From IMG/VR virus record IMGVR_UViG_2909282993_000005: a stretch of 27,486 nt of DNA, one strand, 5' to 3'. Positions 1 through 22,731 of this stretch are shown here, piece after piece (position 1 is the stretch's first letter; every line of letters begins with the position of its first letter). Source of the stretch: a virus (lineage: Duplodnaviria > Heunggongvirae > Uroviricota > Caudoviricetes). Under the pieces are notes generated by a model that made no database searches, was not told where the DNA came from, and saw only the letters and a list, made by a program, of their open reading frames with translations. The position numbers and the translations under genes are program-made.

Positions 1-1284
1 TTACAGACTTCTGGAAGGTTGCGCAGCTCTTACAACACGCGGTTGATCTTCCGCAGCGTCTTCCAGCGCACTTAAATCACGGTCTTTCACTTCTGGCATT
101 TTCAGTGCAGAGATTAAACCAATCACTGAATATGCCATGATCATAATGGCGATTGGATACCAGGATTCCGTCATGGTGCAGAAAATACCTGCCAGGATAG
201 GACCAAAACCGGAAGCGATAAGACCACCAATTTCTTTTGAAATAGCCATCCGGGTAAAGCGGTTTTTACAGCCGAACATTTCTGCCATGGTAATGTTTTC
301 CAGAGCAAATAATCCCAGCACCGCACAGTTATGAATCACAATCAGTGCAACCATAATGGTGCTCGGGGCATAGCTTTTATCTACGATGATAGAAAGCATT
401 GGCCACGCCAGCACAATCGCGGAGGTATTCATAATAATATACGGGATCCGGCGACCAATTTTATCGGATAACCAACCAAGCAACGGAATGGTCATAAAGC
501 CGAGAATCGAACTGATCATCAATGCATCTGTTGGAATTGCTTTGTTAAACAATAACGTCTGTACTAAATAGCCTGCAAGGAAAGTCTGAATTAAACCGGA
601 GTTACCCGCCTGACCAAAACGCAGCCCTGTTGCCAGCCAGAAGGATTTGCTCTGGAACATGCTACCAGCAGGTGCAGGTTTTGCTGTCGGTTGGTTGCTG
701 TCATTAACCTTCTCAAAGACCGGGCTTTCTTTCAGATTCATACGCAACCAGATAGCAAAGACCATCACGACAACGCTCGCCAGGAACGGTATACGCCATC
801 CCCACGCCAGCAGTTCCTCTTTACTGAGAATGAAGAACATAAAGGCCCAGATTGCCGTTGCGCTTAAGGTTCCGCAGTTAGTTCCCATAGCCACAAATGA
901 GGAGATAATTCCGCGCTTACCTTTTGGCGCATATTCCGCCAGCATCGTACCGGCACCGGAAATTTCCGCACCTGCACCCAACCCCTGAATAATACGCAGC
1001 GTCACCAGCAAGATGGGGGCAAAAACACCAATCTGTGCATAGGTCGGTAACACACCAATTAAGGTGGTACAGATCCCCATCATGGTGATGGTAATAAAGA
1101 GCACTTTTTTACGCCCTATTCTGTCGCCCATTTTGCCGAAAATAAATGCTCCGACAATACGCGCCACATAACCTGCACCGTAGGTTCCCATTGCCAAAAT
1201 TAACGCCATTGCCGTTGATGATTCAGGAAAAAATATTTCATGAAACACTAACGCTGCGCCGAGCGAATATAACTGGAAATCCAT
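1..1284 (-). CDS. ydfJ: MFS metabolite:H+ symporter family transporter, YdfJ-like; appears 5'-truncated (in-frame stop two codons upstream of the first Met; about 30 N-terminal residues including part of TM1 missing compared with ShiA/ProP-type relatives)
   Basis: 427-aa ORF with MFS signature motifs (GKMGDRIGRKK loop, WGWRIPF). The N-terminus aligns to about residue 35 of ShiA/ProP-like transporters. From recall, ydfJ is the gene split by the Qin prophage in E. coli K-12. Confidence 0.8.
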   Translation of the reverse strand: MDFQLYSLGAALVFHEIFFPESSTAMALILAMGTYGAGYVARIVGAFIFGKMGDRIGRKKVLFITITMMGICTTLIGVLPTYAQIGVFAPILLVTLRIIQGLGAGAEISGAGTMLAEYAPKGKRGIISSFVAMGTNCGTLSATAIWAFMFFILSKEELLAWGWRIPFLASVVVMVFAIWLRMNLKESPVFEKVNDSNQPTAKPAPAGSMFQSKSFWLATGLRFGQAGNSGLIQTFLAGYLVQTLLFNKAIPTDALMISSILGFMTIPLLGWLSDKIGRRIPYIIMNTSAIVLAWPMLSIIVDKSYAPSTIMVALIVIHNCAVLGLFALENITMAEMFGCKNRFTRMAISKEIGGLIASGFGPILAGIFCTMTESWYPIAIMIMAYSVIGLISALKMPEVKDRDLSALEDAAEDQPRVVRAAQPSRSL

Positions 1285-2330
1285 AATTCACAGATGTTTT
1301 TTCTCATTCTGTGGTTTCCTTGGCGCTTTCTAGGTTTTTTCAGATAGTTACATTTTTTCAAAAGCATCCTGAGTTCGATCTTACTATCTATCTGTGGCCT
1401 ATTTCTGTCCCATATATGCCCCAAAAAACACCCCAACAGATAAGCAATCTTTTCATGGTGTTACGCGTAAAAACAATAACGGCTTGAAATTATTCAATAC
1501 ACTCTCGAAAGTGCATCAGCCAACCGCAGAACGTTATTGCATACAACGTTTCTGCGGCATATCACGAAACGATTACTTAATGACTGGGACTTCAGACCAC
1601 TCAATATCCGGTACAATTATGTATCAACGCAGTTTAACAACACCCTATATTTAATCCAGAGTGCGAGCAACGTTGTCCCTTTCTCTTTTGCACTCTTAAA
1701 ACATACGATTACTTAAGTGAAGATGCTTGACGAATCGCCAAATAAAACATCTTCATCAGCATAAAAATCCATATATGATTGAAAATTTAGTCATTAATAC
1801 CATTCATATCTGAATACTAACCTAATACGCTTACTAACCGTGAGAAATCTTTTTTTTCGACTTAATCACTCGAAATAAACTTTCACTCAATTGAAAACAA
1901 TTAGCTACAATTATCATTGCAATATCAAATCAAACATAACAACTTGCATAAATTCTCATGGGATACAGCATCAGTTGTGCCAAATACATAAGGAATTGAA
2001 ATGGACGGAGAAAGCTTTAACTTTGATGACAATGATATTGAATTTATTGCTTCAATGTATGCATCATGTAAATTATCAGGAAGTATCGCCCCCATAATGC
2101 ATATAATGGTTAGCATTCCAAAAAATAAGAAAAAACAATTCTACGAACGAGTTGAGCATTATTGTAGTTTATATTCCAATAAAAACCCACCTTCTTAAAT
2201 TCGCTGCATTCTAGTGGATTCCATTAAGAAAACAATGACATACACTCAAACACATCTTTTTTATCAACAGTGAATTTCAGTTCGGCCAGTTTTTACCAGC
2301 TATTATAAAAATAGCACCCATATAAAGTTT

Positions 2331-2436
2331 TTACCCCACAGGTACAGCTGGCCATTCGATAACCGCACTAAGGAAGTGCCAACACGACATCAGCAAGACC
2401 CGATATTTCTTCCATGCCGCCAGCAACGATGTTAAG
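2331..2436 (-). pseudogene. Remnant of the 3' end of a second tail fiber assembly (tfa) gene
   Basis: About 80 bp at 2340..2420 are clearly similar to the 3' end of the intact tfa at 3035..3115. The minus-strand translation ends ...[10 protein letters not shown]...IEWPAVPVG*, matching the Tfa C-terminus, with a disrupted middle. Confidence 0.45.
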
Positions 2437-2901
2437 GTTAAATTAATTATAAAAAAATATATTATAATTCCATCTTCGCATTAAATTTTAACCTTTAATC
2501 TCCACACGGAACAAGTTGCATAGGTGACTATATTAAGAAAACTTATAACCACCAAAAAGATTTGCTTTGCAAGCAAAAACAGTGACCATTGACTCTAAGA
2601 AAATTCCGATCTATTGTTAGTGTCATCAAAGTTACTTAACAGTATTCCGAAATGAAAATACAAAGCAAGCTAATTGTCTTATTAAACATTATCATTGCAT
2701 TTATATTATTTGAGCTTTTAGCTCAAAAATTTGGTTTGAGTACATTATTTTAAAGCAAGATAAACAATATCGGGCACTCTAGTTTTTATAATTAACAATT
2801 AAACGCCCATAAAATGTTATTTACTTTTCTTCGCTATTGTCATATCTTAATATAGTGGCTTACGCCACTCTACTTTCATCATATTTTGTACGTTTATGTA
2901 C

Positions 2902-2932
2902 TCGCCATGAAGCTCTTTCATGGCGATTTTTT
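2902..2932 (+). terminator. Intrinsic terminator-like hairpin (10-bp perfect stem tcgccatgaa/ttcatggcga, 5-nt loop, T6 tail)
   Basis: Read directly: stem 2902-2911 and 2917-2926, then tttttt at 2927-2932. The upstream transcript is unknown. Confidence 0.4.
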
Positions 2933-3018
2933 ATTCTTAATCCAAGAACATACTCCCTACCTATAGAAAAATCACTTTTTGAACAAAAGAATAACGTATT
3001 TAGGTAATCATTACGAAT

Positions 3019-3600
3019 TTACCCTATAGGTGCTACTGGCCATTCAATATCCGGTGCAGTTGTTGTATTAACACGGTTCAGCAACACCCGATACTTCTTC
3101 CAGGCTTCCAGCAACGAGATTTCTTCCTCCGTTGCAATTTCCAGATCTGCAGCATCCTGAAGCGGCGCAATATGCTCACTGGCTACCTGCATCAGGTTGT
3201 TTTTTGTTTCTTCCGCCTCCCGGATCCGGAACAGTTTTTCTGCTTCCGTATCCTTCACCCAGGCTGTGCCGTTCCACTTCTGATATTCCCCTTCCGGCGA
3301 TAACCAGGTGACATTTTCCGGTAACGAGCCAAGTTCAGAAATAAATAACGCGTCGCCGGAAGCCACGTCATAGACGGTTTTTCCCCGATGATCTTCAACG
3401 AGATGCCACGATGCCTCATCACTGTTGAAAACAGCCACAAAGCCAGCCGGAATATCTGGCGGTGCAATATCGGTACTGTTTGCTGGCAGACCTGTATGAG
3501 GCGGAATATATGCGTCACCTTCACCAATAAATTCATTAGTTCCGGCCAGCAGATTATAAATTTTTATGGTCCGTGGTTGTTCACTCATTCTGAATGCCAT
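3019..3600 (-). CDS. Tail fiber assembly protein (Tfa family)
   Basis: 193-aa ORF starting [54 protein letters not shown] and ending [13 protein letters not shown]...IEWP, characteristic of lambdoid TfaQ/TfaR/TfaE proteins. Its start overlaps the stf stop. Confidence 0.85.
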
Positions 3601-4193
3601 TATGCAAGCCTCACAATATAGTTAAATGCGATGTTTTTGACGGTGTTTTCCGCGTTACCAGCAGCGTTAACGGTGATGGTGTGTCCATGTGAACCAATCG
3701 CAACGGAGTGCGTATGAGCACCAATACCGACAGTATGCGCGTGTGCACCTGCAGATGCTGCTGTGCCGGACAGTGAGTGGCTATGATTACCATCTGTACT
3801 GGTATTAGCTAACCACCCCGTAGACATACCTACTGAGCCTTGTACACCCCAGGTATTTTGACCTGAGCTTGTATAACCATATTGATAAGTATCTTTAAAA
3901 ACACTGGGGTTAAATCGACGGCCATCTCTATGGCTGTGATTACCAGCTGCATTCGTGCTGCCACTTAAACTATGGGTATGCGCACCAGTGTTATTCGTGG
4001 ATTTAGTGCCGTAATCAAACGACGATGTGGTTTTCGTCCCCAAATCCGTACTGGATGCGCTGGCGCTGTGGGTATGCGATTTAATGCCGTCCTGTTCCTG
4101 AGACAATACGGCCCGACCACTGGTAGGTTTGCCCTTAATCGTCCAGCCACGCATAACCCTGCGTCTGTCAGCACAGTAAAACCCGGTGTGCAT
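3600..4193 (-). pseudogene. Side tail fiber protein, C-terminal fragment only (5' part and all upstream morphogenesis genes deleted)
   Basis: 197-aa ORF with Gly/Ser/Thr/His-rich repeats ([46 protein letters not shown]) typical of the C-terminus of Stf proteins. The first ~20 residues look unrelated, and no tail genes lie upstream. Confidence 0.7.
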
Positions 4194-4468
4194 CGTTTTT
4201 GATTATTCCCGCACACTCACGCAGAAGGAATTCCCCGTCGGGCTACGGTCATGGTTAATGCGGGAATACGGCGACGATACAGCGCAGCTAAAAGGGTAAT
4301 GGACAGAAAGAGCGGTTTATTTCATTCCACAGGATTCTGAGTGTCCCCAACTTCCTCCAATAGTCTGAGCGTACACCTATATAGTTTTAATTTTCATCAA
4401 TCCATTTAACTATCGTTTAATTGTTGTCACATAGGATTCCGCCGTTTTTAACAATGCAGGATAATAAG

Positions 4469-4762
4469 ATGAAAAAAATGTTGTTTTCTGCCGCTCTGGC
4501 AATGCTTATTACAGGATGTGCTCAACAGACGTTTACTGTTGGAAACAAACCGACAGCAGTAACACCAAAGGAAACCATCACCCATCACTTCTTCGTTTCG
4601 GGAATTGGACAGGAGAAAACTGTTGATGCAGCCAAAATTTGTGGCGGCGCAGAAAATGTTGTTAAAACAGAAACCCAGCAAACATTCGTAAATGGATTGC
4701 TCGGTTTTATTACTTTAGGCATTTATACTCCGCTGGAAGCGCGTGTGTATTGCTCACAATAA
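4469..4762 (+). CDS. bor: Bor lipoprotein (serum-resistance / outer-membrane lipoprotein of lambdoid phages)
   Basis: 97-aa product MKKMLFSAALAMLITGCAQQTFTV...GIYTPLEARVYCSQ with lipobox LITGC and an AGGA RBS. It is on the opposite strand to the lysis genes, as in lambda. Confidence 0.85.
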   Translation: MKKMLFSAALAMLITGCAQQTFTVGNKPTAVTPKETITHHFFVSGIGQEKTVDAAKICGGAENVVKTETQQTFVNGLLGFITLGIYTPLEARVYCSQ

Positions 4763-4852
4763 TTGCATGAGTTGCCCATCGATATGGGCAGCTCTATCTG
4801 CACTGCTCATTAATATACTTCTGGGTTCCTTCCAGTTGTTTTTGCATAGTGA

Positions 4853-5254
4853 TCAGCCTCTCTCTGAGGGTGAAATAATCCCGTTCAGCGGTGTCTGCCA
4901 GTCGGGGGAGGCTGCATTATCCACGCCGGAGGCGGTGGTGGCTTCACGCACTGACTGACAGACTGCTTTGATGTGCAACCGACGACGACCAGCGGCAACA
5001 TCATCACGCAGAGCATCATTTTCAGCTTTCGCATTAGCTAACTCCTTCGTGTATTTTTCATCCAGTGCAGCAACATCACGCTGGCGCATCTGCATGTCAG
5101 TAATTGCCGCGTTCGCCAGCTTCAGTTCTCTGGCATTTTTGTCGCGCTGGGCTTTGTAGGTAATGGCGTTATCACGGTAATGATTAACAGCCCATGACAG
5201 GCAGACGATGATGCAGATAACCAGAGCGGAGATAATCGCGGTTACTCTGTTCAT
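4853..5254 (-). pseudogene. Rz (i-spanin), frameshifted: the Rz N-terminal 117 residues read through into the Rz1 frame and end with the Rz1 C-terminal peptide [16 protein letters not shown]
   Basis: Product [64 protein letters not shown]... is lambda-Rz-like. After ...VDNAASP the frame switches at a G5 run (plus 4904-4908), which lambda-type Rz/Rz1 needs to be one base longer. Confidence 0.65.
4885..5034 (-). pseudogene. Rz1 (o-spanin lipoprotein) embedded in Rz, with altered and truncated C-terminus from the same 1-nt indel
   Basis: Embedded ORF with AAGGAG RBS: [44 protein letters not shown] then TGRHR* in place of the expected [16 protein letters not shown]. Lipobox VVGC present. Confidence 0.55.
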
Positions 5255-5748
5255 TGCTGACCCCACAAACAGATTTCACGCTCAATCTCACGACGAGTCA
5301 TGAGACCTTTCCATTGCTTACCGCCAGCATATGTCCAGCGACGTAGCTGATCACATGCGCCTTTGATATCGCCCTGGTTTATTTTGCGAAGAAGCGTCGA
5401 TGTTCTGAAATTGCCAGCGCCCACGTTGTAAACGAACGAGTAAAGAGCGCCGCGCGTTGTTTCCGGTATATCAACTTTGATGTACGGGTTAATTTGTCTG
5501 GCGACCGTGGCAAGGTCTTTATTCAGGAGGGCTTTGCATTCTGCTTTGGTATACGTTTTACCGAGCATGATGTCTTTTCCTGTATGCCCGTGACATACAG
5601 TCCATACACCAACAATATCTTTGTATGGTATGTAGCTGACACCTTCCAGACCATCGTTACCACTTGGGCCAGTAATTAACACTGATGCTATAGCAATTGC
5701 TCCGCCACCAATAGCAGCAGCAACGGCTTTTCGTAATGATGGAGGCAT
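5251..5748 (-). CDS. SAR endolysin (phage 21-type lysozyme R, T4-lysozyme-like muramidase with N-terminal signal-arrest-release domain)
   Basis: 165-aa product [59 protein letters not shown]... with a Gly/Ala-rich SAR helix followed by the catalytic E-D-T region. Start/stop overlaps with S and Rz. Confidence 0.9.
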
Positions 5749-5963
5749 TATTCACCTCTCGCAGCCTTGCGCTTATCTTCTTTAATCTTGAAATAAAGGT
5801 TTGTCAGGTACGTCAGCAGGCCAAATACCAGGCTACCCAGCACACCTATTGCTGCCCACTGTGAGGGCGTGACTTTATCGAGCAGCTGTAAAAACCAGTA
5901 GCCAGCACTGCCTGCGGAGGTGCCGTAGGCAATGCCTGTTGAAATTTTGTCCATGGATTTCAT
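5748..5963 (-). CDS. Pinholin (phage 21 S21-type holin/antiholin with dual start MKSM)
   Basis: 71-aa product [71 protein letters not shown] with two TM segments. It lies immediately upstream of the SAR endolysin with an ATGA overlap. Confidence 0.85.
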
Positions 5964-6214
5964 AGCCTCACCTCCGCACGGAACGGATGGCATAGTTATT
6001 ATGTGTAGGCTTTCAGACACATCAATCAGAGCCTTAATTGATATATATGCTGGAGACGATGCAATATAAAAAGCTCGCCATAGCGAGCTAATAAAATGTA
6101 TTTCTCTGATATTATGTTTATTTGTATTAGCTCAGACTTGACATCACAGGTTTCGTATATAGAACATCATCAAATCTGTCAGTTTGCTATGAATGAGATA
6201 TAGTAATTGAAGAG

Positions 6215-6610
6215 CTAACCTCGCATGTCAAAGCCAGATTTCTGAAAATCTCTGTAGACTTCCGGATTGTTGAAGGCCGGAAATTTGGCTTTATGAGCTG
6301 CGGACTTTATCGCTTCGCAATAGGCTTTATCACCGTTACTGGTAGATATTTTTAACGCCGTGCCATCCTGAGAGAATTCCATATGCAACCTGCATTTTTT
6401 CCCTTTCCAGTTATGCGGCTCATCAAGTTTGGCATTAATTGCAGCTCTGATTCCCCGCGCTTGCGCCCCCCATTCATCCTGATCATCCCAGCGTCCTGAA
6501 CTGCAACTACCTGTAGCAGTAGTTTTGTGGCAATCTGAAGGGTGTAAAGGTGTGCATCCCGCAACAAAACCGACCCAAAAAGTCAACATAACGATTTTCT
6601 TTAATCCCAC
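6215..6610 (-). CDS. Lipoprotein with TolA domain-III-like C-terminus (moron)
   Basis: 131-aa ORF with signal peptide and lipobox (FVAGC). The C-terminus KKCRLHMEFSQDGTALKISTSNGDKAYCEAIKSAAHKAKFPAFNNPEVYRDFQ resembles the TolA C-terminal domain (GKTCTLRIKLAPDGMLLDIKPEGGDPALCQAALAAAKLAKIPKPPSQAVYEVF, from recall). Confidence 0.7.
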   Translation of the reverse strand: MGLKKIVMLTFWVGFVAGCTPLHPSDCHKTTATGSCSSGRWDDQDEWGAQARGIRAAINAKLDEPHNWKGKKCRLHMEFSQDGTALKISTSNGDKAYCEAIKSAAHKAKFPAFNNPEVYRDFQKSGFDMRG

Positions 6611-6760
6611 TTCTTGCTCCTCAATCCATTAAAATCTCAGCAATAGTAGTTGTTACGTCCGCCACTGGCTCAGAGCTGACTATCCGCTAAATTTAGCTCA
6701 GTGCCGTAGCTGTGTCAGAACAAACCTAAGCCGAAACCGTTTATTACAAAACAATAAATA

Positions 6761-7189
6761 TCAGGGTTTAAAATCCAGCACCCCATTTTGAAATACTTTA
6801 TATACTTCCGGCGAAGGGGGGGCAGGTATATCAGCATTCTTTATCGCATTCATCGCTTCACGACATAAATCGAGGTCTCCACTTTCTCTTTTAACCTCCA
6901 GTAGAAGGCCATTCGGGGCCATATGCATTCTCAGTGTACACTCTTTTCCTGAATACTTACTCGCATCCCCGAACTGTTTTTCGATGGCGCTCTTGATTTG
7001 ATGGGCATACAGACGGATATTCTCACTAACATCAGAAGTACGTTCAGATGAACTCACATACTGTGTCTCTATTGCTTTATCGGAGTAATATGATGTACGG
7101 TCATGATAATTTGTCGATACAGCATCAGTGCACCCGATAATAATCCCACTAATAATCAACGTAAGAATTGATGCGCTACGAAAACCCAT
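6761..7189 (-). CDS. Lipoprotein with TolA domain-III-like C-terminus (paralog of 6215..6610)
   Basis: 142-aa ORF with lipobox (IIIGC). The C-terminus GKECTLRMHMAPNGLLLEVKRESGDLDLCREAMNAIKNADIPAPPSPEVYKVFQNGVLDFKP closely parallels the TolA C-terminal domain and the neighbouring ORF. Confidence 0.7.
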   Translation of the reverse strand: MGFRSASILTLIISGIIIGCTDAVSTNYHDRTSYYSDKAIETQYVSSSERTSDVSENIRLYAHQIKSAIEKQFGDASKYSGKECTLRMHMAPNGLLLEVKRESGDLDLCREAMNAIKNADIPAPPSPEVYKVFQNGVLDFKP

Positions 7190-7306
7190 TTTTCCTCACA
7201 TATGTCATATAGTAAAGGATTATATATACCGTTGTTTTGGACGCTCAAACAGCGAATCAGATCAAATAAAACGCACATTTGTTAACATTTACACAAAGTC
7301 TGCGTG

Positions 7307-7327
7307 GGATATTCTGAAAGAATATCC
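7307..7327. promoter_or_regulatory. 21-bp perfect palindrome ggatattc-tgaaa-gaatatcc (candidate dimeric regulator binding site)
   Basis: Read directly: 8-bp inverted arms around a 5-nt spacer, about 120 bp upstream of the lipoprotein gene start at 7189. No T-run, so not a terminator. Confidence 0.3.
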
Positions 7328-7722
7328 ATAATGTGGAGAGAATCTATTGAAGTGCATGGTGCCGGGTGCCTCCCGGTGAATTCAGTACCAGCACCTGAAT
7401 CCGCGATTATCCCATATACCTACTCGCTGATTGCCCCTCCGCACAGGGGGATTCACCATGCCAGTTTCTTTTAACAAACTCCCCGCAAACCAGAGAACAG
7501 TCAACCGCCTGAATTGTGAAGTATTTAAAAATTTCTCCCGCTAACTGATACCCGGCTAACAGTCTGGCGTTTTCTTTTTCAGCAACGGGAAAGCAACAAC
7601 CACCACACCCGCCACCAGCACACCGTCAGCCAGCACTGACATTATCCGGCTGCTGCAATGCCATTCACAAAAACAGTAAGCAATCACTTTTTACCGTAAC
7701 AGGTGATAATCCAGATATGTAT

Positions 7723-8076
7723 CTACCCCAGATGAGTAATCCGAAGTTCATCCATACCACAGGTCCTGGCTATTCTGTTGTACTCCTGAACAAGAGCAAA
7801 TAATTCTGAATTAGCAACCATGAACTCATCGCAAACCCTCTGTATAGCATCACTATTCAGAAGAATAACGTCTCTTCCCGAAAGACGATCAGGAGTACAG
7901 AACAAAACTGTCAAACGGCTGAAGGCCTTTGCTCGTGCTGCATTGACTATATCAATACGCTGCCTAAGGATGAAACACCCCGACGCCTCATCAATATTCA
8001 CTCTACCCACACCATATGAATGATAAATATTTAATGCTGAAAAAACCATTAGACCGTATAACAAACACTCAATCAA
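7723..8076 (-). CDS. Hypothetical protein (moron between phage tRNAs and lysis cassette); start codon uncertain (TTG at 8076 or internal ATG at 8049)
   Basis: 117-aa ORF with no recognisable motif. Its position matches the accessory slot used by stx in Stx phages. Confidence 0.3.
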   Translation of the reverse strand: MIECLLYGLMVFSALNIYHSYGVGRVNIDEASGCFILRQRIDIVNAARAKAFSRLTVLFCTPDRLSGRDVILLNSDAIQRVCDEFMVANSELFALVQEYNRIARTCGMDELRITHLG

Positions 8077-8186
8077 TACTTAACAGAACTTTTATTTTTG
8101 ACAAACATATAATATTTTCAACAATATCCTGAGCCAGGTATATTCCAGTATAAGGCTCTGCCGGAAGGAATCTGGAAGAATGAATA

Positions 8187-8263
8187 TGGCGCGCTGTACT
8201 GGATTCGAACCAGTAACCGATTGCTTAGAAGGCAATTGCTCTGTCCGGCTGAGCTAACAACGC
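8187..8263 (-). tRNA. tRNA-Arg (anticodon UCU)
   Basis: 77-nt cloverleaf GCGTTGTTAGCTCAGCCGGACAGAGCAATTGCCTTCTAAGCAATCGGTTACTGGTTCGAATCCAGTACAGCGCGCCA. 7-bp acceptor stem, T-loop GGTTCGAATCC, anticodon loop CTTCTAA (U33, anticodon TCT, A37), encoded CCA. Confidence 0.85.
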
Positions 8264-8367
8264 TGAATACCGATAATGGACCGCTATCGGGGACCCGCCC
8301 CCCCCCGCACCAACAACCCTGTTATCGTGTCGTCTGCTCTTCCTGATAAGCTCATGGCGGTTTGTGA

Positions 8368-8443
8368 TGGTGGCCCTTGCTGGATTTGAACCAGCGACCT
8401 GGCGATTATGAGTCGCTCGCTCTCACCACTGAGCTAAAGGGCC
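8368..8443 (-). tRNA. tRNA with CAU anticodon, most similar to tRNA-Ile2 (lysidine type, ileX/ileZ-like); elongator Met not fully excluded
   Basis: 76-nt cloverleaf GGCCCTTTAGCTCAGTGGTGAGAGCGAGCGACTCATAATCGCCAGGTCGCTGGTTCAAATCCAGCAAGGGCCACCA. Anticodon loop CTCATAA; strong resemblance to E. coli ileX from recall. Confidence 0.8.
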
Positions 8444-8481
8444 GGGAGCAGAATAATAACGGTCCGTAATTAATTCCGCAA

Positions 8482-8506
8482 TAAAAAACCCGCTCGGCGG
8501 CGGGTT
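8482..8506 (-). terminator. tR'-like intrinsic terminator between the late promoter region and the tRNA genes
   Basis: Minus-strand RNA AACCCGC-CGCCGA-GCGGGUU followed by UUUUUUAU (7-bp GC-rich stem, then U-run). Confidence 0.45.
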
Positions 8507-8553
8507 GTAGAAACTCTTCTAACGTCAGGCATAAAAAGCCCATCGTTATGATG

Positions 8554-8581
8554 AATTTACCACAGATTTCGGAAAAATCAA
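8554..8581 (-). promoter_or_regulatory. Candidate late promoter pR' (sigma70-like -35 TTGATT, 16-bp spacer, -10 TAAATT) directly downstream of the Q-like gene
   Basis: Hexamers read on the minus strand. The position (Q stop to tR' to tRNAs to lysis genes) matches lambdoid late-operon layout. Short leader of about 60 nt before the terminator. Confidence 0.3.
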
Positions 8582-8586
8582 CCTTG

Positions 8587-9408
8587 TTACCTAGTTACCT
8601 TTTTTAACTGCCGCTCAGCCCATCCTTCTTCAATATCAAACCGGGTCACCAGCGCATCATAGAATTTCTTAACTGTTTTTTCCCATGACGCGCGTGTTAT
8701 CTGGTTTGTCACCTCGCATATAGCATTAAATGCCTCCGTTGATGGTAGTCTTTCATAGCCACGACCACCACAACGCTGGCAGTCTCTGATAACAGGCATA
8801 CCACGTTTTACCGACTCTTCACGGTGAATGGCGACACCACGCCCACGGCAATCCTTACAGGCGGTGGAAACCTCACCCTTTCCGCCACACTCCGGACAGG
8901 CAACTTTTACCACCTCCCTGACTTTTTTCCATTCTTCCCAGTAAGACGGATACACACCTTTCGTACACTTTGCCCATACCGGCGGCTTACCATCCGGATA
9001 CTGGACCTTGTTTGTAAAAACTACGCTTTCAATAAATTTTTCCCCATAGCAACAAGGGCACTGCTTTTTACTCGCTGCGCTGCGGGCATAATCCTCAAAA
9101 GCGTACGAAGCCATAATGCGCATCACTACCGGTTTTATTTCTGCCGGAAGTTTTCTCAACGCCGCCACACGATCGCACCGACTGAGTGCATAATCTGCCA
9201 GTAATTCTGTTGCCCGCGCCCTGTCATTCATACTGATGCCCATTTTCCCCAGGAACGCAGAAAACCCCATCTCAGCCCGATTCTGTGTCATGCCCTGCGC
9301 GGCCATCACATCAGTGATACTCAGCGCATCTTTTGACGTTGAGGCCGATGCATCGGTCAGGCAAGGGGATTTTGGGGAGTAGTATTTCGGTAAATCTTCC
9401 AGTTTCAT
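8587..9408 (-). CDS. Late-gene antiterminator Q-like protein with Cys-rich zinc-finger region (CPCC plus three CxxCxGxG motifs)
   Basis: 273-aa ORF immediately upstream of pR'/tR' and the tRNAs and downstream of rusA, the canonical Q position. Motifs CPECGGKG, CKDCRGRG, CQRCGGRG. Family assignment is by position plus Zn-binding motifs, not verified by search. Confidence 0.55.
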   Translation of the reverse strand: MKLEDLPKYYSPKSPCLTDASASTSKDALSITDVMAAQGMTQNRAEMGFSAFLGKMGISMNDRARATELLADYALSRCDRVAALRKLPAEIKPVVMRIMASYAFEDYARSAASKKQCPCCYGEKFIESVVFTNKVQYPDGKPPVWAKCTKGVYPSYWEEWKKVREVVKVACPECGGKGEVSTACKDCRGRGVAIHREESVKRGMPVIRDCQRCGGRGYERLPSTEAFNAICEVTNQITRASWEKTVKKFYDALVTRFDIEEGWAERQLKKVTR

Positions 9409-11288: not shown

Positions 11289-11444
11289 TTACTCCTCAGG
11301 TTCGTAAACTGTGAAGACAGCGACCTCCGTCTGGCCGGTTCGGATTCGTAACTCGCAGAGGTCTTTCCTCGTTACCAGTGCCGTCACTATGACGGTTAAA
11401 CAGATGACGATCAGGGCGATTAACATCGCCTTTTGCTGCTTCAT
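11289..11444 (-). CDS. hokD: Hok/Gef-family type I toxin (HokD/RelF-like, 51 aa); in-frame upstream extension to 11501 corresponds to a Mok-like reading frame
   Basis: MKQQKAMLIALIVICLTVIVTALVTRKDLCELRIRTGQTEVAVFTVYEPEE, near-identical to HokD/RelF from recall: single TM helix plus conserved C-terminal periplasmic tail. Confidence 0.9.
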   Translation of the reverse strand: MKQQKAMLIALIVICLTVIVTALVTRKDLCELRIRTGQTEVAVFTVYEPEE

Positions 11445-12164
11445 AGCCTGCTTCTCCTTGCCTTTCGGCACGTAAGAGGCTAACCTAGATTTGCCGTTCA
11501 TAGATTGAGCCTCAGATTAATGTTAAGCGTCTTGCAGGACGCGTAATGTTAACTGGGGCTTTTCTCTATCTGCCTTTGGTGTTCATGCCTGAGGCAGATA
11601 GCCTCAAGCACCCGCAGCAATTCTACTTAACTCCCGTCACCTCGCCAATATAAAATCAATCAGAAAGGCGATCCATAAGAACAACAGCAAGACAATAAAT
11701 TGCCATTACAGCCGCAATAGCTAGCGCACATTTGAGAACCAGCACGACAACCTCCTGTATTGGACGTACACCAGTTCTGATAAATATGAGGCTGTCTCAT
11801 CATTGATTCAATATAACTATTGGGTATAGTTTCTGTGATTTTGTTCTGTAGAAATGGAACACAACAACCAGTCACCACCAGCACTTCTTTAAATACGCCA
11901 AGTCCGACGCAAGCTAACCTTCTAGTCCGCTTTGAGCGAGGAGCGGACCAAACCCGGCCAACTGACTCTTAAAGGGGCCGCAGGAATTTTTCGTCTGAAC
12001 TTTCGAAGCTCCTCTCCCTGAAGACAGAAAACTTCTGTGTGCTGTGGGAATATTGAATCTTTGCATTAGATATAAATAATTTTATCCCGCCTGAAGTTTA
12101 CATTATTTTATTTATCTGTTTTTCTAAATCAGACTGCACTCCTTACTTAAATCAGGAGCCAGTC

Positions 12165-13364
12165 ATGCCATTTGTTATTTATGTGTTTACTATCAGTGCC
12201 TTTGCGCTCGGACTCGCGGAATTTGTCCCCATTGGGCTGACAGACGTTATGGCTCAGGGGTTGTGTGTGGGTGTGGAGCAGACCGGGGCAGCGGTTACAA
12301 CCTATGCACTGGGGGCAACGTTCGCGGCACCCGTACTGTCTGCGCTGACAGCAAGCTGGAGCCGGAAAAATGTAATGCTTACAACTGCCGTTGTGTTTAC
12401 TGCCGGTAGTCTGGCGGCCGCGTTTGCAGCCACATTACCTCAGCTCCTGTTAGCGCGGTTCATTGCTGGTCTGGGACACGGCCTGTTTCTGGCTGCGGCA
12501 TCCAGTACCGCAGCTCGTCTTGCTGGACCGGGTAAAGCAGGCAGAGCGGTGGCTGTGGTATTTGGTGGCTTTACTCTGGCGATGGCAATCGGCGTACCGC
12601 TGAGTACATGGTTGGGGGGGGTGGTCTCATGGCGTCCAGTTCTCGGCGCTATTGCCGCTTTTGGCGCGTTCGGATTCCTTGGACTGTTGTTCGGTATGAA
12701 AGATCCCGTACGCAGCGTGCCCGGTGAACATAGTGACTCAGCAATGCAGAATATCGGCATGCTGTTTAACCGTAAGTTGCTGGCCGGCGCGCTGGTTACG
12801 GTGCTGGCGTATGCAGGCTCGTTTACGGCTTACACCTTTATCGCACCTATTCTGACGCAGGTGACAGGGGTTACCGGAGCAAAGGTGAGTCTGTTTATGC
12901 TGGTTTACGGTATTACAGCTGCGGTAGGTAATATTCTTGGTGGGAAACTTACCGACAGCATGGGGGTTAATCGTGCCAATATACTCATCATTAGCGGCAT
13001 TGTTGTTGTCGTGCTTGGTATGTGGCTGCTGTCATCCTCACCGGTGAGCATGGGCATTCTGGTTGCGCTGCTGGGTATGGTGACATTTGCCGCAGTGCCG
13101 GCACTGCAGGCCCGTCTGATTGGTGTCGCTGAGCAACATGCTCCTCATGCGCATGGTGTTGCTGCCGGCCTGAATATTGCGGGCTTCAACTCAGGTATAG
13201 CGCTGGGATCAGTACTGGGCAGCATTACTATAAGCCACGCCGGTATCGTGTATACCGGTATCAGCGGTGCGATTGTTTCTCTGCTCGGCCTGCTGTTGCT
13301 GCTTGCACAAATCCGTCGCAGCCACAGTCGTAAATTTCAACAGGTTAAAATCGTAGGCCAGTAA
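12165..13364 (+). CDS. MFS transporter (12-TM, DHA1-like efflux/sugar-type family); GC-rich gene
   Basis: 399-aa highly hydrophobic ORF with MFS loop motifs; AGGAG RBS. Nucleotide composition is visibly more GC-rich than the flanking phage DNA. Confidence 0.8.
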   Translation: MPFVIYVFTISAFALGLAEFVPIGLTDVMAQGLCVGVEQTGAAVTTYALGATFAAPVLSALTASWSRKNVMLTTAVVFTAGSLAAAFAATLPQLLLARFIAGLGHGLFLAAASSTAARLAGPGKAGRAVAVVFGGFTLAMAIGVPLSTWLGGVVSWRPVLGAIAAFGAFGFLGLLFGMKDPVRSVPGEHSDSAMQNIGMLFNRKLLAGALVTVLAYAGSFTAYTFIAPILTQVTGVTGAKVSLFMLVYGITAAVGNILGGKLTDSMGVNRANILIISGIVVVVLGMWLLSSSPVSMGILVALLGMVTFAAVPALQARLIGVAEQHAPHAHGVAAGLNIAGFNSGIALGSVLGSITISHAGIVYTGISGAIVSLLGLLLLLAQIRRSHSRKFQQVKIVGQ

Positions 13365-13375
13365 AGGGAGGTTAT

Positions 13376-14068
13376 ATGCTTACCCGTGAAAATATGCTTA
13401 ATGGCACATTTGTCAGGGTGCATGAAGCGCTGCTCCCGGCGAATATGCTCTGGGACGCTGAAAAAATACGCGCATCAATGAACTCTACTCTGGAGGAGCG
13501 CCCGACGGGTGCTCCTTTCTGGATATTTGCCTACGGGTCATTGATGTGGAATCCCGTGCTGGCAATTGAAGAAATGCAACGGGCCCGTCTGAAAGGATGG
13601 CAGCGCAGTTTCTGCATTCGTTTGATATCCGGACGAGCGACTCCTGATGTCCCCGGCAGGATGTTATCGCTCGACGAAGGTGGAATTACCGAAGGTATTG
13701 CGTTCAGACTGCCGGAATCGACTCTTATTAATGAGCTGGAAATTGTCTGGACGCGCGAGATGATAACCGGTCTTTACCGTCCGGTCTGGGCAGACGTTTC
13801 GCTAGGAAACGGTGAGGAAATTCAGGCGCTGGCTTTCGTATCAGACAGACTGCATCCGCATTATGAACAGGACAATCTTACAGCGACCGTAGCGTTGAGC
13901 ATCGCATCTGCCCGTGGAGACATTGGCACGAATGCAGATTATGTATGGAAACTGCAGGCCACTCTGGGTGCGTTGGGAATACGGGATGATTACGTGAGTG
14001 AACTGGCCCTTGCTCTGCATGAGGCTCCCTGTAACGATAAACTTCATCAGCGAGGCGCTTCACTATGA
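13376..14068 (+). CDS. ChaC-family gamma-glutamylcyclotransferase-like protein
   Basis: 230-aa product with FAYGSLMWNP and GRMLSLDEGG...WTREMITG motifs matching the ChaC/GGCT fold signature (YGSL catalytic region). Confidence 0.8.
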   Translation: MLTRENMLNGTFVRVHEALLPANMLWDAEKIRASMNSTLEERPTGAPFWIFAYGSLMWNPVLAIEEMQRARLKGWQRSFCIRLISGRATPDVPGRMLSLDEGGITEGIAFRLPESTLINELEIVWTREMITGLYRPVWADVSLGNGEEIQALAFVSDRLHPHYEQDNLTATVALSIASARGDIGTNADYVWKLQATLGALGIRDDYVSELALALHEAPCNDKLHQRGASL

Positions 14069-14946
14069 GCCATCTGAGCCATCTGCGAACGTTTCTTGAG
14101 GCCTATCGCTCTGGCTCCTTTTCAAAGGCGGCAGAACTACTGGGCATCACTCAGCCCGCGGCGTCACAGCATATCCAGTCTCTTGAGACTCTGGTTGGTA
14201 AGCGTCTGTTTATCAGGCAGGCCAGAGGCGTGACGGCAACCGAAGCTGCGGATGAGCTTGCCCGCTCAGTTTCACCCTTCATTGATGGTCTGGAAGAAAA
14301 GCTGTCCTCTTTCCGGTCAGGCTCTGTACACGGGGGAACAATTAATCTGGCAGGACCGCCAGATTTTATTCATTCCCGGCTTGGGACAGTAATGGCTCCA
14401 CTAATGAAGGAGGGGTATCGCCTACGCTTTCATACCGGCAATAAGCAACGTATTTATTCCCTTTTGCATGACGGGAGCGCCGATCTCGCTGTTACCGCAT
14501 CTATGCCTGATGACCGTCTGTACGGCTATGCACATCTACTGACTGAACGCATGCTCCTTGTTCATGCTCCCGCCATGTCAGAGATCATCGGATCAGAACC
14601 TGGTGCTGAAACGCTTGCCTCATTACCGCTGATTGCTTATGACGAAGAGTTGCCACTGATTAGAGCGCTCTGGGCCTCCATGTTTCAGAGAGCCCCTGAG
14701 ATGCAGGCTACATTCACCATTCCGGATTTACGTATTATCCGCGACTTGGTCTGTGACGGCCACGGGTGGACAGTGCTGCCGGATTATCACTGTGACAATG
14801 ACCTGAAAAGTGGTCGCCTGATTTCAGTGACACCTGCAGACCTCGCTCCGACTAATCATCTTTATCTGGTCTGGAACAAAAGGACGGCTAATAACAGCCG
14901 AACCGCCTATGTTCGGGATTACATTCTTAAAACGTTTCCGCGTTGA
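14065..14946 (+). CDS. LysR-family transcriptional regulator
   Basis: 293-aa product with an N-terminal wHTH typical of LysR (LRTFLEAYRSGSFSKAAELLGITQPAASQHIQSLE) and a C-terminal substrate-binding domain. 4-bp overlap with the ChaC-like gene. Confidence 0.85.
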   Translation: MSHLSHLRTFLEAYRSGSFSKAAELLGITQPAASQHIQSLETLVGKRLFIRQARGVTATEAADELARSVSPFIDGLEEKLSSFRSGSVHGGTINLAGPPDFIHSRLGTVMAPLMKEGYRLRFHTGNKQRIYSLLHDGSADLAVTASMPDDRLYGYAHLLTERMLLVHAPAMSEIIGSEPGAETLASLPLIAYDEELPLIRALWASMFQRAPEMQATFTIPDLRIIRDLVCDGHGWTVLPDYHCDNDLKSGRLISVTPADLAPTNHLYLVWNKRTANNSRTAYVRDYILKTFPR

Positions 14947-14990
14947 TGTTTGAAACGGATGATTGGCGATGTGTATCATAAGTTACGTAT

Positions 14991-15020
14991 GTCCGCTTCT
15001 GGCACAAAGCAGACGCCCAC
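14991..15020. repeat. 30-bp imperfect direct repeat, copy A (gtccgcttctggcacaaagcagacgcccac)
   Basis: Matches copy B at 18664..18693 in 24/30 positions, with a 14-bp core GGCACAAAGCrGAC. Lies between the LysR stop and the convergent membrane-protein gene. Confidence 0.5.
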
Positions 15021-15076
15021 TCTCACGCGAATGCTTTGCCCTTGACTTGCCAACAACCGTATCGCTTGCTCCGCAA

Positions 15077-16369
15077 CTATGGTTTTTTATTAGAACCTTC
15101 GCCACTAAATAAATTATAATAAATTGATTTTATTAGATATCTGTCAGAATCTATATGGTCAGCACGAGTAGCATGCTCTAATGTTTCAAATGCTAGGGTT
15201 TGTGCGGCTTCAGCAAAAATTCCAGGCCAACCCTTACTCAGCATCGACAGTCCTTTAAGTACCCTTATCTGAATTTCCCTCATACTGGCACCATCGCGCG
15301 CAACAGGTGAGAAAAAGTCTTCAAGTAGATCGTTATTCTGAAGTGGTGCAACATGTACAGAAGGATATTTCACTTCTATTTCATCAGATTTATTCTGCGC
15401 GTAAGCGGAAAGTATACGTACACCTCTGCCAATGACATCAATGGCGGTTCCAGGATCGTTCACTGCGGGGGAAAGGGCTCGGCAGGCTATTTCGGCCATG
15501 ACGCTAAGACAAAATCGGGGGTCCTGAGCAAATGAACGTACATCCGAGACAATAATCGTCTCAAGTAAATCGGTGCTGATTGATGACTCCTGGCCCTGAC
15601 TCAGGTACAAAACTGGCGTGGACGGATGTATGAAACTGCCCGGCTGCGCCACGAGGTATACATGACGGGGATCATTGGTCAGCAGCTTGCTGAGTTTCAC
15701 CATATCAACATATTCAACATAGCCAATCTTTTTCGGATAAACTGCAACCGTTCCTTTCGGCTGTTCATTGTTCTCAAGCCATGGATATCCGCCGAGACAG
15801 GGATTTCTTGCTCTCGCAATAAATGTTTCGATGGCCGCCTGTTCTACTTTTGCCGTTGTCTCACCAACCCTCCCCAGAGAGGTCAAATGCTGTATCCAGC
15901 GAAGCAATGTGATGAGGATTAAGGCAATGACAACCAGTGTTACAATGAATAAAATGACTCTCCCCCTTTCTCCATAAGCTCCCATATTGAGGGCAATAAT
16001 CCCTACCAGACTGAAGAGAAAAGAACCGATGAAGGTGGCCAGTACATTTTGTGTGGTGACGTCTTCAACAACTAAACGAGTAGCTCTGGGAGTCACATTA
16101 GTAGTGGCTGAACCGTAGGCTGTGACCATGATGCTCAGCGAAAATGTGGTCACTGCCAGCATACTCGATGCCAGTATGTTCAGAATGTTATCGACTGCTT
16201 CCGCACCAACCTTCACGGAAACCGACTCAGGTATCATTGATTTAAAAAGAATTGATAAAAGGGCCGTTATTATTGCGACAATTGCGAATAACGTTGCCCT
16301 GAACCATAGTTTTTTAAATGTCTGCTTCAGCATCCATTTCCAGCGTGAAATCATTCTGCATTCCCTCAT
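15077..16369 (-). CDS. Membrane protein with N-terminal multi-TM region and C-terminal soluble domain (tentatively DUF2254-like); exact start uncertain (alternative Met codons at residues 6 and 13)
   Basis: 430-aa ORF with four predicted hydrophobic helices in the first ~160 residues and a long hydrophilic C-terminus. Family name is tentative recall. Confidence 0.55.
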   Translation of the reverse strand: MRECRMISRWKWMLKQTFKKLWFRATLFAIVAIITALLSILFKSMIPESVSVKVGAEAVDNILNILASSMLAVTTFSLSIMVTAYGSATTNVTPRATRLVVEDVTTQNVLATFIGSFLFSLVGIIALNMGAYGERGRVILFIVTLVVIALILITLLRWIQHLTSLGRVGETTAKVEQAAIETFIARARNPCLGGYPWLENNEQPKGTVAVYPKKIGYVEYVDMVKLSKLLTNDPRHVYLVAQPGSFIHPSTPVLYLSQGQESSISTDLLETIIVSDVRSFAQDPRFCLSVMAEIACRALSPAVNDPGTAIDVIGRGVRILSAYAQNKSDEIEVKYPSVHVAPLQNNDLLEDFFSPVARDGASMREIQIRVLKGLSMLSKGWPGIFAEAAQTLAFETLEHATRADHIDSDRYLIKSIYYNLFSGEGSNKKP

Positions 16370-16417
16370 ATTGCAGCCGGGATAAATAAATGCCGCCTCT
16401 GTGGCGGCATGTTGCTG

Positions 16418-22678: not shown

Positions 22679-22731
22679 TTTCTGGTGACGTTTGGCGGTA
22701 TCAGTTTTACTCCGTGACTGCTCTGCCGCCC
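22679..22731 (+). ncRNA. dicF: DicF small RNA (cell-division inhibitor sRNA targeting ftsZ mRNA)
   Basis: 53-nt sequence TTTCTGGTGACGTTTGGCGGTATCAGTTTTACTCCGTGACTGCTCTGCCGCCC matches DicF from recall, followed by a T-run (22732-22736) and preceded by a structured ~300-nt leader. Confidence 0.8.

Follow-up and report, generated by a model that had tools for sequence, protein, structure and literature searches.

Two tRNA genes lie downstream of a Q-like antiterminator gene in the 27,486-nucleotide stretch of viral DNA analyzed here (the window; IMG/VR record IMGVR_UViG_2909282993_000005), and this position raises the question of whether they are made only as part of a Q-controlled late transcript or belong to a unit of their own. 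The initial annotation had placed them in a Q-dependent late leader with the organization of Stx-converting phages. We consider the region likely to be a late regulatory junction, in a defective prophage of the lambdoid Qin type inserted in ydfJ, at which two independent mosaic modules abut: a lambda-type late switch and a promoter-bearing tRNA cassette, giving the tRNAs a dual-promoter supply. The locus itself is real but ordinary, being the familiar tRNA-Ile2/tRNA-Arg cassette that lambda-like prophages of E. coli carry. Public annotations of phiP27 and mEp460, and PGAP annotations of more than 1000 E. coli genomes, already record the cassette, its form with two tRNAs and its location behind Q. 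All features between 8187 and 9408 lie on the minus strand (Table 1).

Table 1 Features of the late regulatory region and of the genes that follow it, with positions in the window
Feature	Position	Strand	Evidence
Q antiterminator gene, lambda-Q type, 273 aa	8587-9408	minus	PF03589 E 2.9e-54; phrog_127 'anti-termination protein Q-like' E 2e-110
Late promoter pR'	8554-8581	minus	-35 TTGATT 8576-8581, 16-nt spacer, TG at -15/-14, -10 TAAATT 8554-8559; read from sequence
Sigma-70 pause-inducing -10-like element (qut-type), AACGAT then GGG	8539-8547	minus	predicted start A at 8547; same sequence and spacing as lambda
Short late leader RNA, ~65 nt	8483-8547	minus	fold -20.6 kcal/mol, z -2.1, ends in terminator hairpin
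Intrinsic terminator tR'	8483-8506	minus	7-bp GC-rich hairpin 8487-8506 and U-run; terminator scan and fold
Cassette sigma-70 promoter (predicted), TTGCGG-17 nt-TATTAT	8453-8481	minus	exact match; conservation footprint
ileZ-type tRNA-Ile2, anticodon CAU, encoded CCA	8368-8443	minus	ARAGORN (tRNA-Met/Ile2(cat)); Rfam 72.5 bits
Pseudo-argN, decayed tRNA-Arg(UCG)	8277-8360	minus	alignments to Stx2a-phage argN and phiP27
argO-type tRNA-Arg, anticodon UCU, encoded CCA	8187-8263	minus	ARAGORN; Rfam 68 bits
ORF92, 92 aa, GTG start, phrog_2873 (function unknown)	7723-8001	minus	phrog_2873 E 1.8e-57
DUF3927 small membrane protein, 43 aa	7556-7687	minus	PF13064 E 1.7e-27; phrog_1470 'TciB-like' E 7.8e-13; PGAP DUF3927 family protein
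STnc100-family prophage sRNA element	7300-7490	minus	Rfam RF02076, 114 bits vs gathering score 47
TolA C-terminal-domain lipoprotein 1, 142 aa	6761-7189	minus	PF06519 E 3.6e-23; phrog_5772; N-terminal ...IIGC
TolA C-terminal-domain lipoprotein 2, 124-131 aa	6215-6610	minus	PF06519 E 1.3e-14; phrog_5772; N-terminal ...VAGC

Two intact tRNA genes and the remains of a third

We began with the tRNAs themselves. ARAGORN called both genes that the initial annotation had proposed, tRNA-Ile2(CAU) and tRNA-Arg(UCU), with exactly the ends given for them there, and both score above the gathering score of 29 for the Rfam tRNA model. In identical genomes PGAP names them tRNA-Ile (ileZ) and tRNA-Arg (argO). 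We use the names ileZ, argN and argO as annotated in AP012540.1; in the literature searched they were not found in this cassette sense, and their history is taken here from GenBank annotations. The window's ileZ is identical at 76 of 76 positions to the annotated ileZ of Stx2a_WGPS8, and argO matches its counterpart there at 75 of 77. Compared with host tRNAs, ileZ agrees with the validated ileX sequence at 68 of 76 positions and with metT, in what we take to be its sequence, at 54 of 77. The tRNA-Ile2 determinants C4-G69, C5-G68 and A73 are present in ileZ. From these determinants, TilS is predicted to modify C34 and IleRS to charge the tRNA, so that the CAU anticodon would be read as lysidine-AU and decode AUA. 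The UCU anticodon of argO decodes AGA and, weakly, AGG. A Plastid-ycf2 match antisense to ileZ fell below its Rfam gathering score and is explained by the tRNA.

The spacer between the two genes is 104 bp long (8264-8367), as first described. The homopolymer reported within it as C8 has in fact nine bases (C9 on the plus strand, G9 on the coding strand; 8298-8306). The suspicion that the spacer is a decayed third tRNA was correct, and comparison with argN of Stx2a phage and with phiP27 identifies it as argN, a tRNA-Arg(UCG). In the pseudogene the acceptor and D-arm ends survive, another sequence stands in place of the anticodon arm and the T-loop reads GGCGGGT instead of TTCGAGT. Neither ARAGORN nor Rfam at E <= 1 found a tRNA in the window's spacer, and Rfam at E <= 10 found none in that of phiP27. 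We therefore rejected the idea that the spacer encodes an unusual tRNA, given also that it folds no better than shuffled sequences (z +0.47). Relatives carry 15 distinct remnant sequences, and within the window's remnant type the G-run is 4, 5, 6 or 9 bases long. A phase-variable G9 tract was likewise rejected in view of its location in a pseudogene and the absence of any feature linked to the length, and we treat the variation as neutral slippage.

About 30 viral contigs share this two-tRNA form, as does phage phiP27. In phiP27, a Stx2e phage whose annotation gives only ileZ and argO, the gap of about 101 bp contains the same replaced anticodon-arm sequence, and the tRNA block is 90.4% identical to that of the window. 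However, the T-arm and acceptor stem of argN look intact in phiP27, whereas the window's copy lacks the T-loop and has the G9 run.

A lambda-type late switch abutting a tRNA cassette

The order originally described, of Q gene, late promoter, short leader, intrinsic terminator and tRNAs, holds according to our reading of the sequence, a terminator scan and the tRNA calls. We next asked to which phages each part is related. The window's Q is 31% identical to lambda Q (E 4e-39), relative to which it has a Cys-rich insertion of about 66 aa, and no similarity was found between it and the Q of Stx2a phage (933W-type). The late promoter pR' begins 5 nt past the Q stop codon and is conserved in 17 viral loci carrying this Q type; a generic promoter scan missed it (8 of 12 matches, threshold 9). 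Its -10 hexamer is the same as that of lambda pR'. The predicted pause element, AACGATGGG, spans +1 to +9 and begins 6 nt beyond the -10 hexamer. Both the element and its spacing are shared with lambda and with locus L114, the latter despite a Q identity of only 35%. The window has a single copy of TAAATT-N6-AACGATGGG, against 0.02 expected by chance, and close variants of the element differ at positions 3-4 of AACGAT only. By contrast, the promoter spacer, the expected site of the Q-binding element, differs between lambda and the window.

The terminator tR' is also conserved in L114. An Rfam Trp_leader match over the leader (25.7 bits vs gathering score 41, E 0.023) was set aside, as the terminator explains it. 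Leader length distinguishes the known systems: the lambda leader is 194 nt long, compared with about 65 nt in the window. The late leader of the window is the counterpart of lambda 6S RNA and StxS, which are short, constitutively terminated leaders, and the Stx-phage leader measures 258 nt (PMC7547250). The features of a lambda-type Q switch are thus present, with a lambda-family Q directly upstream of the promoter, the predicted pause element and tR'. By analogy with such switches, Q is predicted to bind between -35 and -10, would load onto RNA polymerase at the sigma-70 pause element and would make the polymerase terminator-resistant. The first module would accordingly consist of the Q gene, a constitutive pR', the pause element, the leader and tR'.

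The second module would be a mobile tRNA cassette of 312 bp, with its own sigma-70 promoter, ileZ, the dead argN and argO. It starts one base past the tR' U-run. Homology to Stx phages is confined to this cassette (8172-8483), with its left edge at 8483; reciprocally, a query of the Q-leader region was matched in many genomes only up to about 8481-8483. Overall, the cassette is 86-90% identical to those of Stx phages. The Stx-phage and lambdoid ileZ-argN-argO cluster has the same gene order, likewise lies between Q/tR' and the lysis genes and is preceded by the same TTGCRG-17-TATTAT block. Stx2a phage differs from the window in having an intact argN, a terminator hairpin after argO and a different Q/pR' family, and in that stx follows the tRNAs. 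The proposed match to the pR'-tR'-ileZ-argN-argO organization of Stx phages therefore stands for the tRNA block, which is homologous, but not for Q, pR' and tR', which are lambda-type and without relation to the Stx2a Q.

The two modules also occur apart. Among viral contigs, the cassette is found behind at least three unrelated upstream modules, and in L114 tR' is set apart from the cassette promoter by a gene for a lipoprotein and a further terminator, indicating that the Q switch and the tRNA cassette are separable. The complete 1.1-kb arrangement (Q, pR', tR', ileZ, pseudo-argN, argO, ORF92 and DUF3927) is present, and annotated, in 1177 of 5426 complete E. coli genomes. In the Qin-type prophages of these genomes and in Escherichia phage mEp460_ev081 it is 98.6-100% identical to the window, from which it differs only by point differences and by the length of the G-run (G5 in mEp460, G9 in the window).

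Expression, conservation and codon usage

To which promoter do the tRNAs belong? They were said to lie in the late leader, and this did not hold: they are positioned after tR' and have a candidate sigma-70 promoter of their own. The -35 hexamer of this promoter, a weak one (3 of 6 matches), abuts the tR' U-run, and its -10 hexamer ends 9 nt before the mature 5' end of ileZ. Across 36 distinct upstream sequences its footprint is conserved, with values of 0.92-1.00 for TTG and 0.94-1.00 for TATTAT. Consistent with this, a published dRNA-seq remark, given without coordinates, places a primary start site of an Stx2a phage at the corresponding relative position, between tR' and stx2AB (PMC7547250). 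The conserved promoter together with this start site argues that tRNA expression is probably constitutive and boosted by Q; for activity of the promoter in this strain, we infer it from the conservation and the single published remark. The description of the tRNAs as Q-dependent is, on this evidence, at most half of the story: since they appear to have a conserved promoter of their own, a strict dependence on Q should not be assumed for them. In the lysogen, the cassette promoter would make both tRNAs continuously. Once Q is expressed, antiterminated pR' transcripts would read through tR' and add to the output, and host tRNA-processing enzymes would excise the tRNAs from the late transcript. 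The tRNAs would thereby make more decoders available for AUA and AGA/AGG, codons rarely used by the host. A fitness benefit from them is one that we only infer.

The main alternative is that the tRNAs are made solely within the antiterminated pR' transcript on induction and serve late-gene translation. The intact architecture of Q, pR' and pause element fits this model, as does the location of the tRNAs, which share a strand with pR' and Q and lie 40 nt past tR'. Nonetheless we think it unlikely. The promoter footprint directly upstream of ileZ is conserved across divergent contexts, the published Stx2a start site is independent of pR', and the cassette also resides behind non-Q genes and far from tR'; in phiP27, for example, a DNA methyltransferase lies upstream and stx2e downstream. 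Furthermore, the prophage has lost all of its head and tail genes, leaving few late genes for the tRNAs to serve, and ileZ and argO remain under purifying selection in it. With the prophage defective, a role for the tRNAs in the lytic cycle is largely moot.

The evidence for purifying selection comes from comparison across loci, in which 10% of columns are variable in argO, 48% in pseudo-argN and 36-78% in the flanks; the value for ileZ is 1%, a figure biased by the retrieval of loci with an exact 32-mer from ileZ. These data also bear on the possibility that ileZ and argO are functionless leftovers of a decaying cryptic prophage that have merely not decayed so far. The missing structural genes are in keeping with such decay, as are an Rz gene that is frameshifted relative to a sibling genome and an argN that is already dead, the window's copy being the most degraded of its type. 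We regard this explanation as very improbable, since at the same loci the variation in argO is 4-5 times lower than in the neighboring argN remnant and far lower than in the flanks, one argO variant among the relatives has a compensatory swap in the T-stem, and ileZ has remained identical to the Stx-phage copy in a cassette that has diverged as a whole. In addition, the structural-gene deletion is recent: a full-length sibling is 99.92% identical.

We next turned to codon usage. The initial annotation had suggested counting AUA, AGA and AGG codons, and prophage genes proved rich in them, with odds ratios of 7-8 relative to host core genes (p <= 2e-18). ATA, AGA and AGG together make up 31.8 codons per 1000 in the genes after the tRNAs and 26.9 in the early genes, compared with 3.9 in 44 host core genes, a sample that includes highly expressed genes and so somewhat overstates the fold-enrichment. 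The K-12 genome average is commonly quoted as about 7-8 per 1000, against which the enrichment would be approximately 4-fold. Counts were taken from the ORFs of the window itself, with their frames checked. The coordinates of iss (97 of 4647 codons) failed this check; the gene is included in the all-prophage total and lies outside the early-gene and downstream-gene groups. Relative to host core genes, use of these codons is thus 7-8 times higher in the genes of the prophage itself and in its cargo island.

Nucleases are known to target tRNA-Lys(UUU), and tRNA-Arg is cut by colicin D. That the phage tRNAs replace host tRNAs cleaved by anticodon nucleases of defense systems or colicins, instead of supplementing rare codons, would agree with these activities and with related cassettes in which the same ileZ and promoter are followed by Lys(UUU)-Thr(UGU)-Gly(UCC), but is highly improbable, as the ileZ anticodon loop equals that of host ileX (validated) and the argO loop equals what we take to be that of argU, both without visible escape mutations, and the two anticodons exactly match the codons over-represented in prophage genes.

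Constitutive expression with a boost from Q remains our preferred account of how the tRNAs are made. As to why they are kept, we offer a tentative proposal, to which we give somewhat less than even weight: the cassette may be an autonomous, promoter-bearing mobile module maintained by host-level selection and not for phage late-gene expression. ileZ and argO would be retained, even in defective prophages, as constitutive decoders of AUA and AGA for AT-rich horizontally acquired genes, argN(UCG) would be dispensable and lost repeatedly by at least three independent routes of decay, and the tRNA genes would provide recombination junctions at which the material behind the late promoter is shuffled. 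The pattern itself, in which argN has been lost repeatedly while ileZ and argO are strictly retained, amounts to a natural experiment on the value of individual accessory tRNAs.

Genes in the position of stx

The interval from the tRNAs to the lysis genes is filled by ORF92, DUF3927, STnc100 and two TolA-like genes. The view that a toxin slot here holds other morons was right insofar as stx is absent (no match to StxA in the window by tblastn) and ORF92 and the TolA-like genes are found there. Its framing is inverted, however: StxA lies within 2.5 kb downstream in only about 10 of 123 cassette-bearing viral contigs, and stx is thus a rare occupant of the position.

ORF92, the first gene in this position, is a real gene that PGAP missed. 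Its full-length homologs share 56-57% identity with it, and differences fall 23/23/43 across the three codon positions. Eight of its 92 codons are ATA, AGA or AGG. Profile searches of Pfam, NCBIfam and PDB matched nothing in it. The presence of an overlooked phrog_2873 gene beside the tRNAs is a useful point for annotation. Further downstream, the two proteins initially described as TolA-like lipoproteins both match PF06519 and have the lipobox-like N-termini IIGC and VAGC, in agreement with that description.

A tRNA cassette beside the late switch

The initial annotation had described a Q-dependent late leader carrying tRNA-Ile2(CAU) and tRNA-Arg(UCU), as in Stx phages. Along the minus strand, the ORF for the antiterminator Q is followed by the hexamers of the late promoter pR', a hairpin with a T-run (its intrinsic terminator tR') and two tRNA genes 104 bp apart, and all features described were recovered at their positions by ARAGORN, Pfam, a terminator scan or reading of the sequence. 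In the whole 27.5-kb window ARAGORN called two tRNA genes and no more; both lie on the minus strand, encode their CCA ends and are also scored by Rfam. The description therefore stood for the features and their positions but not for the placing of the tRNAs inside the leader, since the cassette sits downstream of tR'.

Features of the locus and of the surrounding prophage
Feature	Coordinates	Strand	Evidence
Truncated host ydfJ	1-1284		
tfaQ	3019-3600		
IS009, inside tfaQ	3059-3257	-	Rfam hit, gathering score passed
Tail-fibre fragment	3600-4193		
Rz	4853-5266	-	
STnc100-family sRNA element	7300-7490	-	RF02076, full-length, 114 bits (gathering score 47)
ORF92, GTG start	7723-8001	-	phrog_2873, E 1.8e-57; no PGAP annotation
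DUF3927			PF13064; phrog 'TciB-like'
tRNA-Arg(tct), argO	8187-8263	-	ARAGORN; Rfam tRNA model, 68 bits (gathering score 29)
tRNA-Met/Ile2(cat), ileZ	8368-8443	-	ARAGORN; Rfam tRNA model, 72.5 bits (gathering score 29)
Putative cassette promoter	TTGCGG 8476-8481, 17 nt, TATTAT 8453-8458	-	Sequence match
tR' hairpin, then T-run	8487-8506	-	Terminator scan
pR' hexamers	TTGATT 8576-8581, 16-nt spacer, TAAATT 8554-8559	-	Read from sequence
Q ORF, 273 aa	8587-9408	-	Pfam PF03589 'Antitermination protein Q', E 2.9e-54
sok, adjoining hokD	11439-11613	-	Rfam hit, gathering score passed
Five-gene cargo island	12165-18421		
DicF	22680-22731	+	Rfam hit, gathering score passed

Homology to Stx phages begins at 8483, one base past the U-run of tR', and in many E. 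coli genomes the match to the window's Q-leader query stops at ~8481-8483. The tRNAs have a putative promoter whose -10 hexamer ends 9 nt ahead of the mature 5' end of ileZ. Among 36 distinct 60-nt upstream sequences from viral loci, TTG (0.92-1.00) and TATTAT (0.94-1.00) are conserved, mostly 17 nt apart, while the spacer and flanks diverge, almost completely in some lineages. In an Stx2a phage, a primary start site for the tRNAs has been published at the corresponding relative position, between tR' and stx2AB (PMC7547250). The cassette also lies behind a DNA methyltransferase in the Stx phage phiP27, behind a 933W-type Q, and, in the IMG/VR contig L114, with a lipoprotein gene and a further terminator ahead of it. 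The conserved promoter, the homology edge and these other contexts argue that the tRNAs form a self-contained module after tR' rather than part of the leader, and the locus should be called an autonomous tRNA cassette just downstream of a lambda-type Q/pR'/tR' switch. The tRNAs are probably expressed constitutively, with a Q-dependent boost. The Stx2a phage has a terminator hairpin downstream of argO, whereas the window has none there.

The CAU tRNA is identical to chromosomal ileX at 68/76 positions and to elongator tRNA-Met at only 54/77. The ileX query was validated by 100% matches in 5022 of 5511 matching records, annotated tRNA-Ile, and was present at >=80% coverage in 5423/5426 genomes. 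The CAU tRNA bears C4-G69, C5-G68 and A73, which are tRNA-Ile2 determinants in the TilS and IleRS literature, and PGAP names it tRNA-Ile.

Of 5426 complete E. coli genomes, 3067 match the 1.1-kb stretch from Q to DUF3927, and the match spans 80% or more of it in 1177 of these, where PGAP labels it 'antitermination protein, tRNA-Ile, tRNA-Arg, DUF3927'; Escherichia phage mEp460_ev081 has the same stretch at 98.6% identity. These findings are not new. Public annotations of phages and >1000 E. coli genomes already include the cassette, the two-tRNA form of it (phiP27) and the exact arrangement. Pseudo-tRNA variants adjoining stx2 are also in the literature (PMC13641118), with gene maps in PMC3491183.

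Decay of argN and constraint on its neighbours

In megablast against phage genomes, the alignments to phiP27 and Stx2 phages (86-90% identity) were confined to window 8172-8483. The homologous block is annotated ileZ-argN-argO in the Stx2a phage Stx2a_WGPS8; in phiP27 its only annotated genes are ileZ and argO, ~101 bp apart. Compared with the Stx2a copies, the window's ileZ is identical (76/76) and its argO nearly so (75/77). The spacer, previously suggested to be a decayed third tRNA, aligns end to end with argN, tRNA-Arg(UCG). Its 5' acceptor strand and D-arm and its 3' T-stem and acceptor strand are still recognisable, AGACGACACGATAACAGGGTTGTTGGT stands in place of the anticodon arm, as in phiP27 and mEp460, and the T-loop has changed from TTCGAGT to GGCGGGT behind a G-run. 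Neither ARAGORN nor Rfam called a tRNA in the spacer, which folds no better than shuffled sequence (z +0.47). Together, these data indicate that the spacer is a decayed argN. Its homopolymer, given initially as C8, has nine bases (8298-8306).

An IMG/VR scan with an ileZ 32-mer yielded 120 loci, making 123 sequences with the window and two reference phages. The intact ileZ-argN-argO trio occurs in about 60, ileZ and argO separated by 80-104 nt in 31, and other tRNAs (Lys-Thr-Gly) behind the same ileZ in about 25. The argN remnants represent at least three independent decay forms. Within the window's type the G-run has 4, 5, 6 or 9 bases, G9 being found only in the window's copy, which has two further private substitutions.

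If the tRNAs were neutral relics in a decaying prophage, they would have no current function, a reading that we consider very improbable. Against it stands the comparison of 24 loci with the pseudo-argN form: 10% of argO columns vary against 48% in the argN remnant, and in one argO variant the T-stem carries a compensatory change (CACTGG...CCAGT to CAGTGG...CCACT). The upstream block varies at 36% of columns, the downstream 100 nt at 78%, and ileZ at 1%, a figure biased by the retrieval 32-mer.

Related phages in the IMG/VR set keep the same ileZ and promoter with tRNA-Lys(UUU)-Thr(UGU)-Gly(UCC) in place of argN/argO, and in phage vB_EcoS-640R1 argO is cut off within the anticodon loop, suggesting that tRNA genes act as recombination junctions.

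The late switch and the genes beyond the cassette

By sequence, the late switch is of lambda type, not Stx type. The window's Q aligns over its full length with lambda Q (31% identity, E 4e-39), differing by a ~66-aa Cys-rich insertion, and has no similarity to the Stx2a phage Q. The insertion contains extra CxxC motifs, and there is a match below threshold to the DnaJ central zinc-finger domain. Lambda pR' reads TTGACT-17-TAAATT-TGACTC-AACGATGGG and that of the window TTGATT-16-TAAATT-CATCAT-AACGATGGG; the two share the -10 hexamer, the 6-nt distance to the start and the -10-like element plus GGG. In lambda, the -10-like element causes a sigma-70-dependent pause, where Q engages RNA polymerase. 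In close relatives this element varies only at positions 3-4 (AATGAT, AACTAT, AACAAT, AATAAT), with A2, A5 and T6 constant, and the window contains the combined motif a single time, where 0.02 occurrences would be expected. L114, whose Q is only 35% identical to the window's and whose hexamers differ (TTGCAT-17-TAAGAT), retains the 6 nt, AACGATGGG and the window's terminator. Between tR' and the tRNA promoter it has a ~650-nt insert encoding a small lipoprotein-like ORF, which lies between two copies of the same terminator hairpin. The window's predicted leader of ~65 nt (8547 to about 8483), with the terminator at its folded 3' end (z -2.1), would be the counterpart of lambda 6S RNA and StxS (PMC7547250).

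The interval from argO to the lysis genes holds ORF92 (92 aa), DUF3927, the STnc100-family element and two TolA C-terminal-domain proteins with lipobox-like N-termini. Compared with its full-length homologs (56-57% identity), ORF92 is a real gene, the differences by codon position being 23/23/43, a third-position excess. StxA lies downstream in only about 10 of the 123 cassette-bearing contigs and the ORF92-DUF3927 pair in about 20, indicating that this slot takes many kinds of cargo, of which stx is a rare one. In L009, an unrelated contig, an ORF92 homolog with 57% identity comes after the gene for an AraC-family regulator, and the short ORF behind this homolog is weakly similar, at the DNA level, to the DUF3927 region. 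The space between DUF3927 and the first of the TolA-like genes holds the STnc100 element; PGAP instead places a pseudo 'hypothetical protein' there, in the opposite orientation. STnc100 has been linked to PasD and to PF03589 Q genes in a 2026 preprint.

Source prophage and codon demand

Window 1-9000 equals E. coli F8111-1SC3 (NZ_CP024269) save one 1-nt indel, and the annotation there shows a lambdoid prophage of Qin type within ydfJ. That annotation retains no genes for head or tail: the lysis genes and iss are followed only by a tail-fibre fragment, tfaQ and the truncated host gene. In E. coli AR436 a full-length sibling occupies the same site, with 99.92% identity over window 4154-27486, implying that the structural genes were deleted recently. 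The window's prophage is defective. Relative to NZ_CP024269, its Rz gene has a 1-nt deletion in a C-run (~4908) that shifts it into the frame of Rz1, so that the product has 137 aa rather than 153; either a genuine variant or a sequencing error may lie behind this.

Demand for rare codons is not confined to late genes. In frame-checked window ORFs, ATA+AGA+AGG per 1000 codons reach 31.8 in genes downstream of the tRNAs, 26.9 in early and regulatory genes and 28.7 in the cargo island, against 3.9 in 44 annotated host core genes. This corresponds to odds ratios of 7-8 (p <= 2e-18), and because this host sample is skewed to well-expressed genes the true enrichment is nearer 4-fold, as against the genome average in K-12 codon tables. 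Enrichment is lowest in the structural genes of the AR436 sibling (10.3 per 1000). ORF92 has ATA, AGA or AGG at 8/92 codons.

The cargo island, between the replication region and hokD, encodes an MFS transporter, a gamma-glutamylcyclotransferase, a LysR regulator, a DUF2254 protein and a BCCT transporter, and is rich in ATA (15.4 per 1000). DicF, sok and IS009 are the usual regulatory RNAs of Qin-type prophages.
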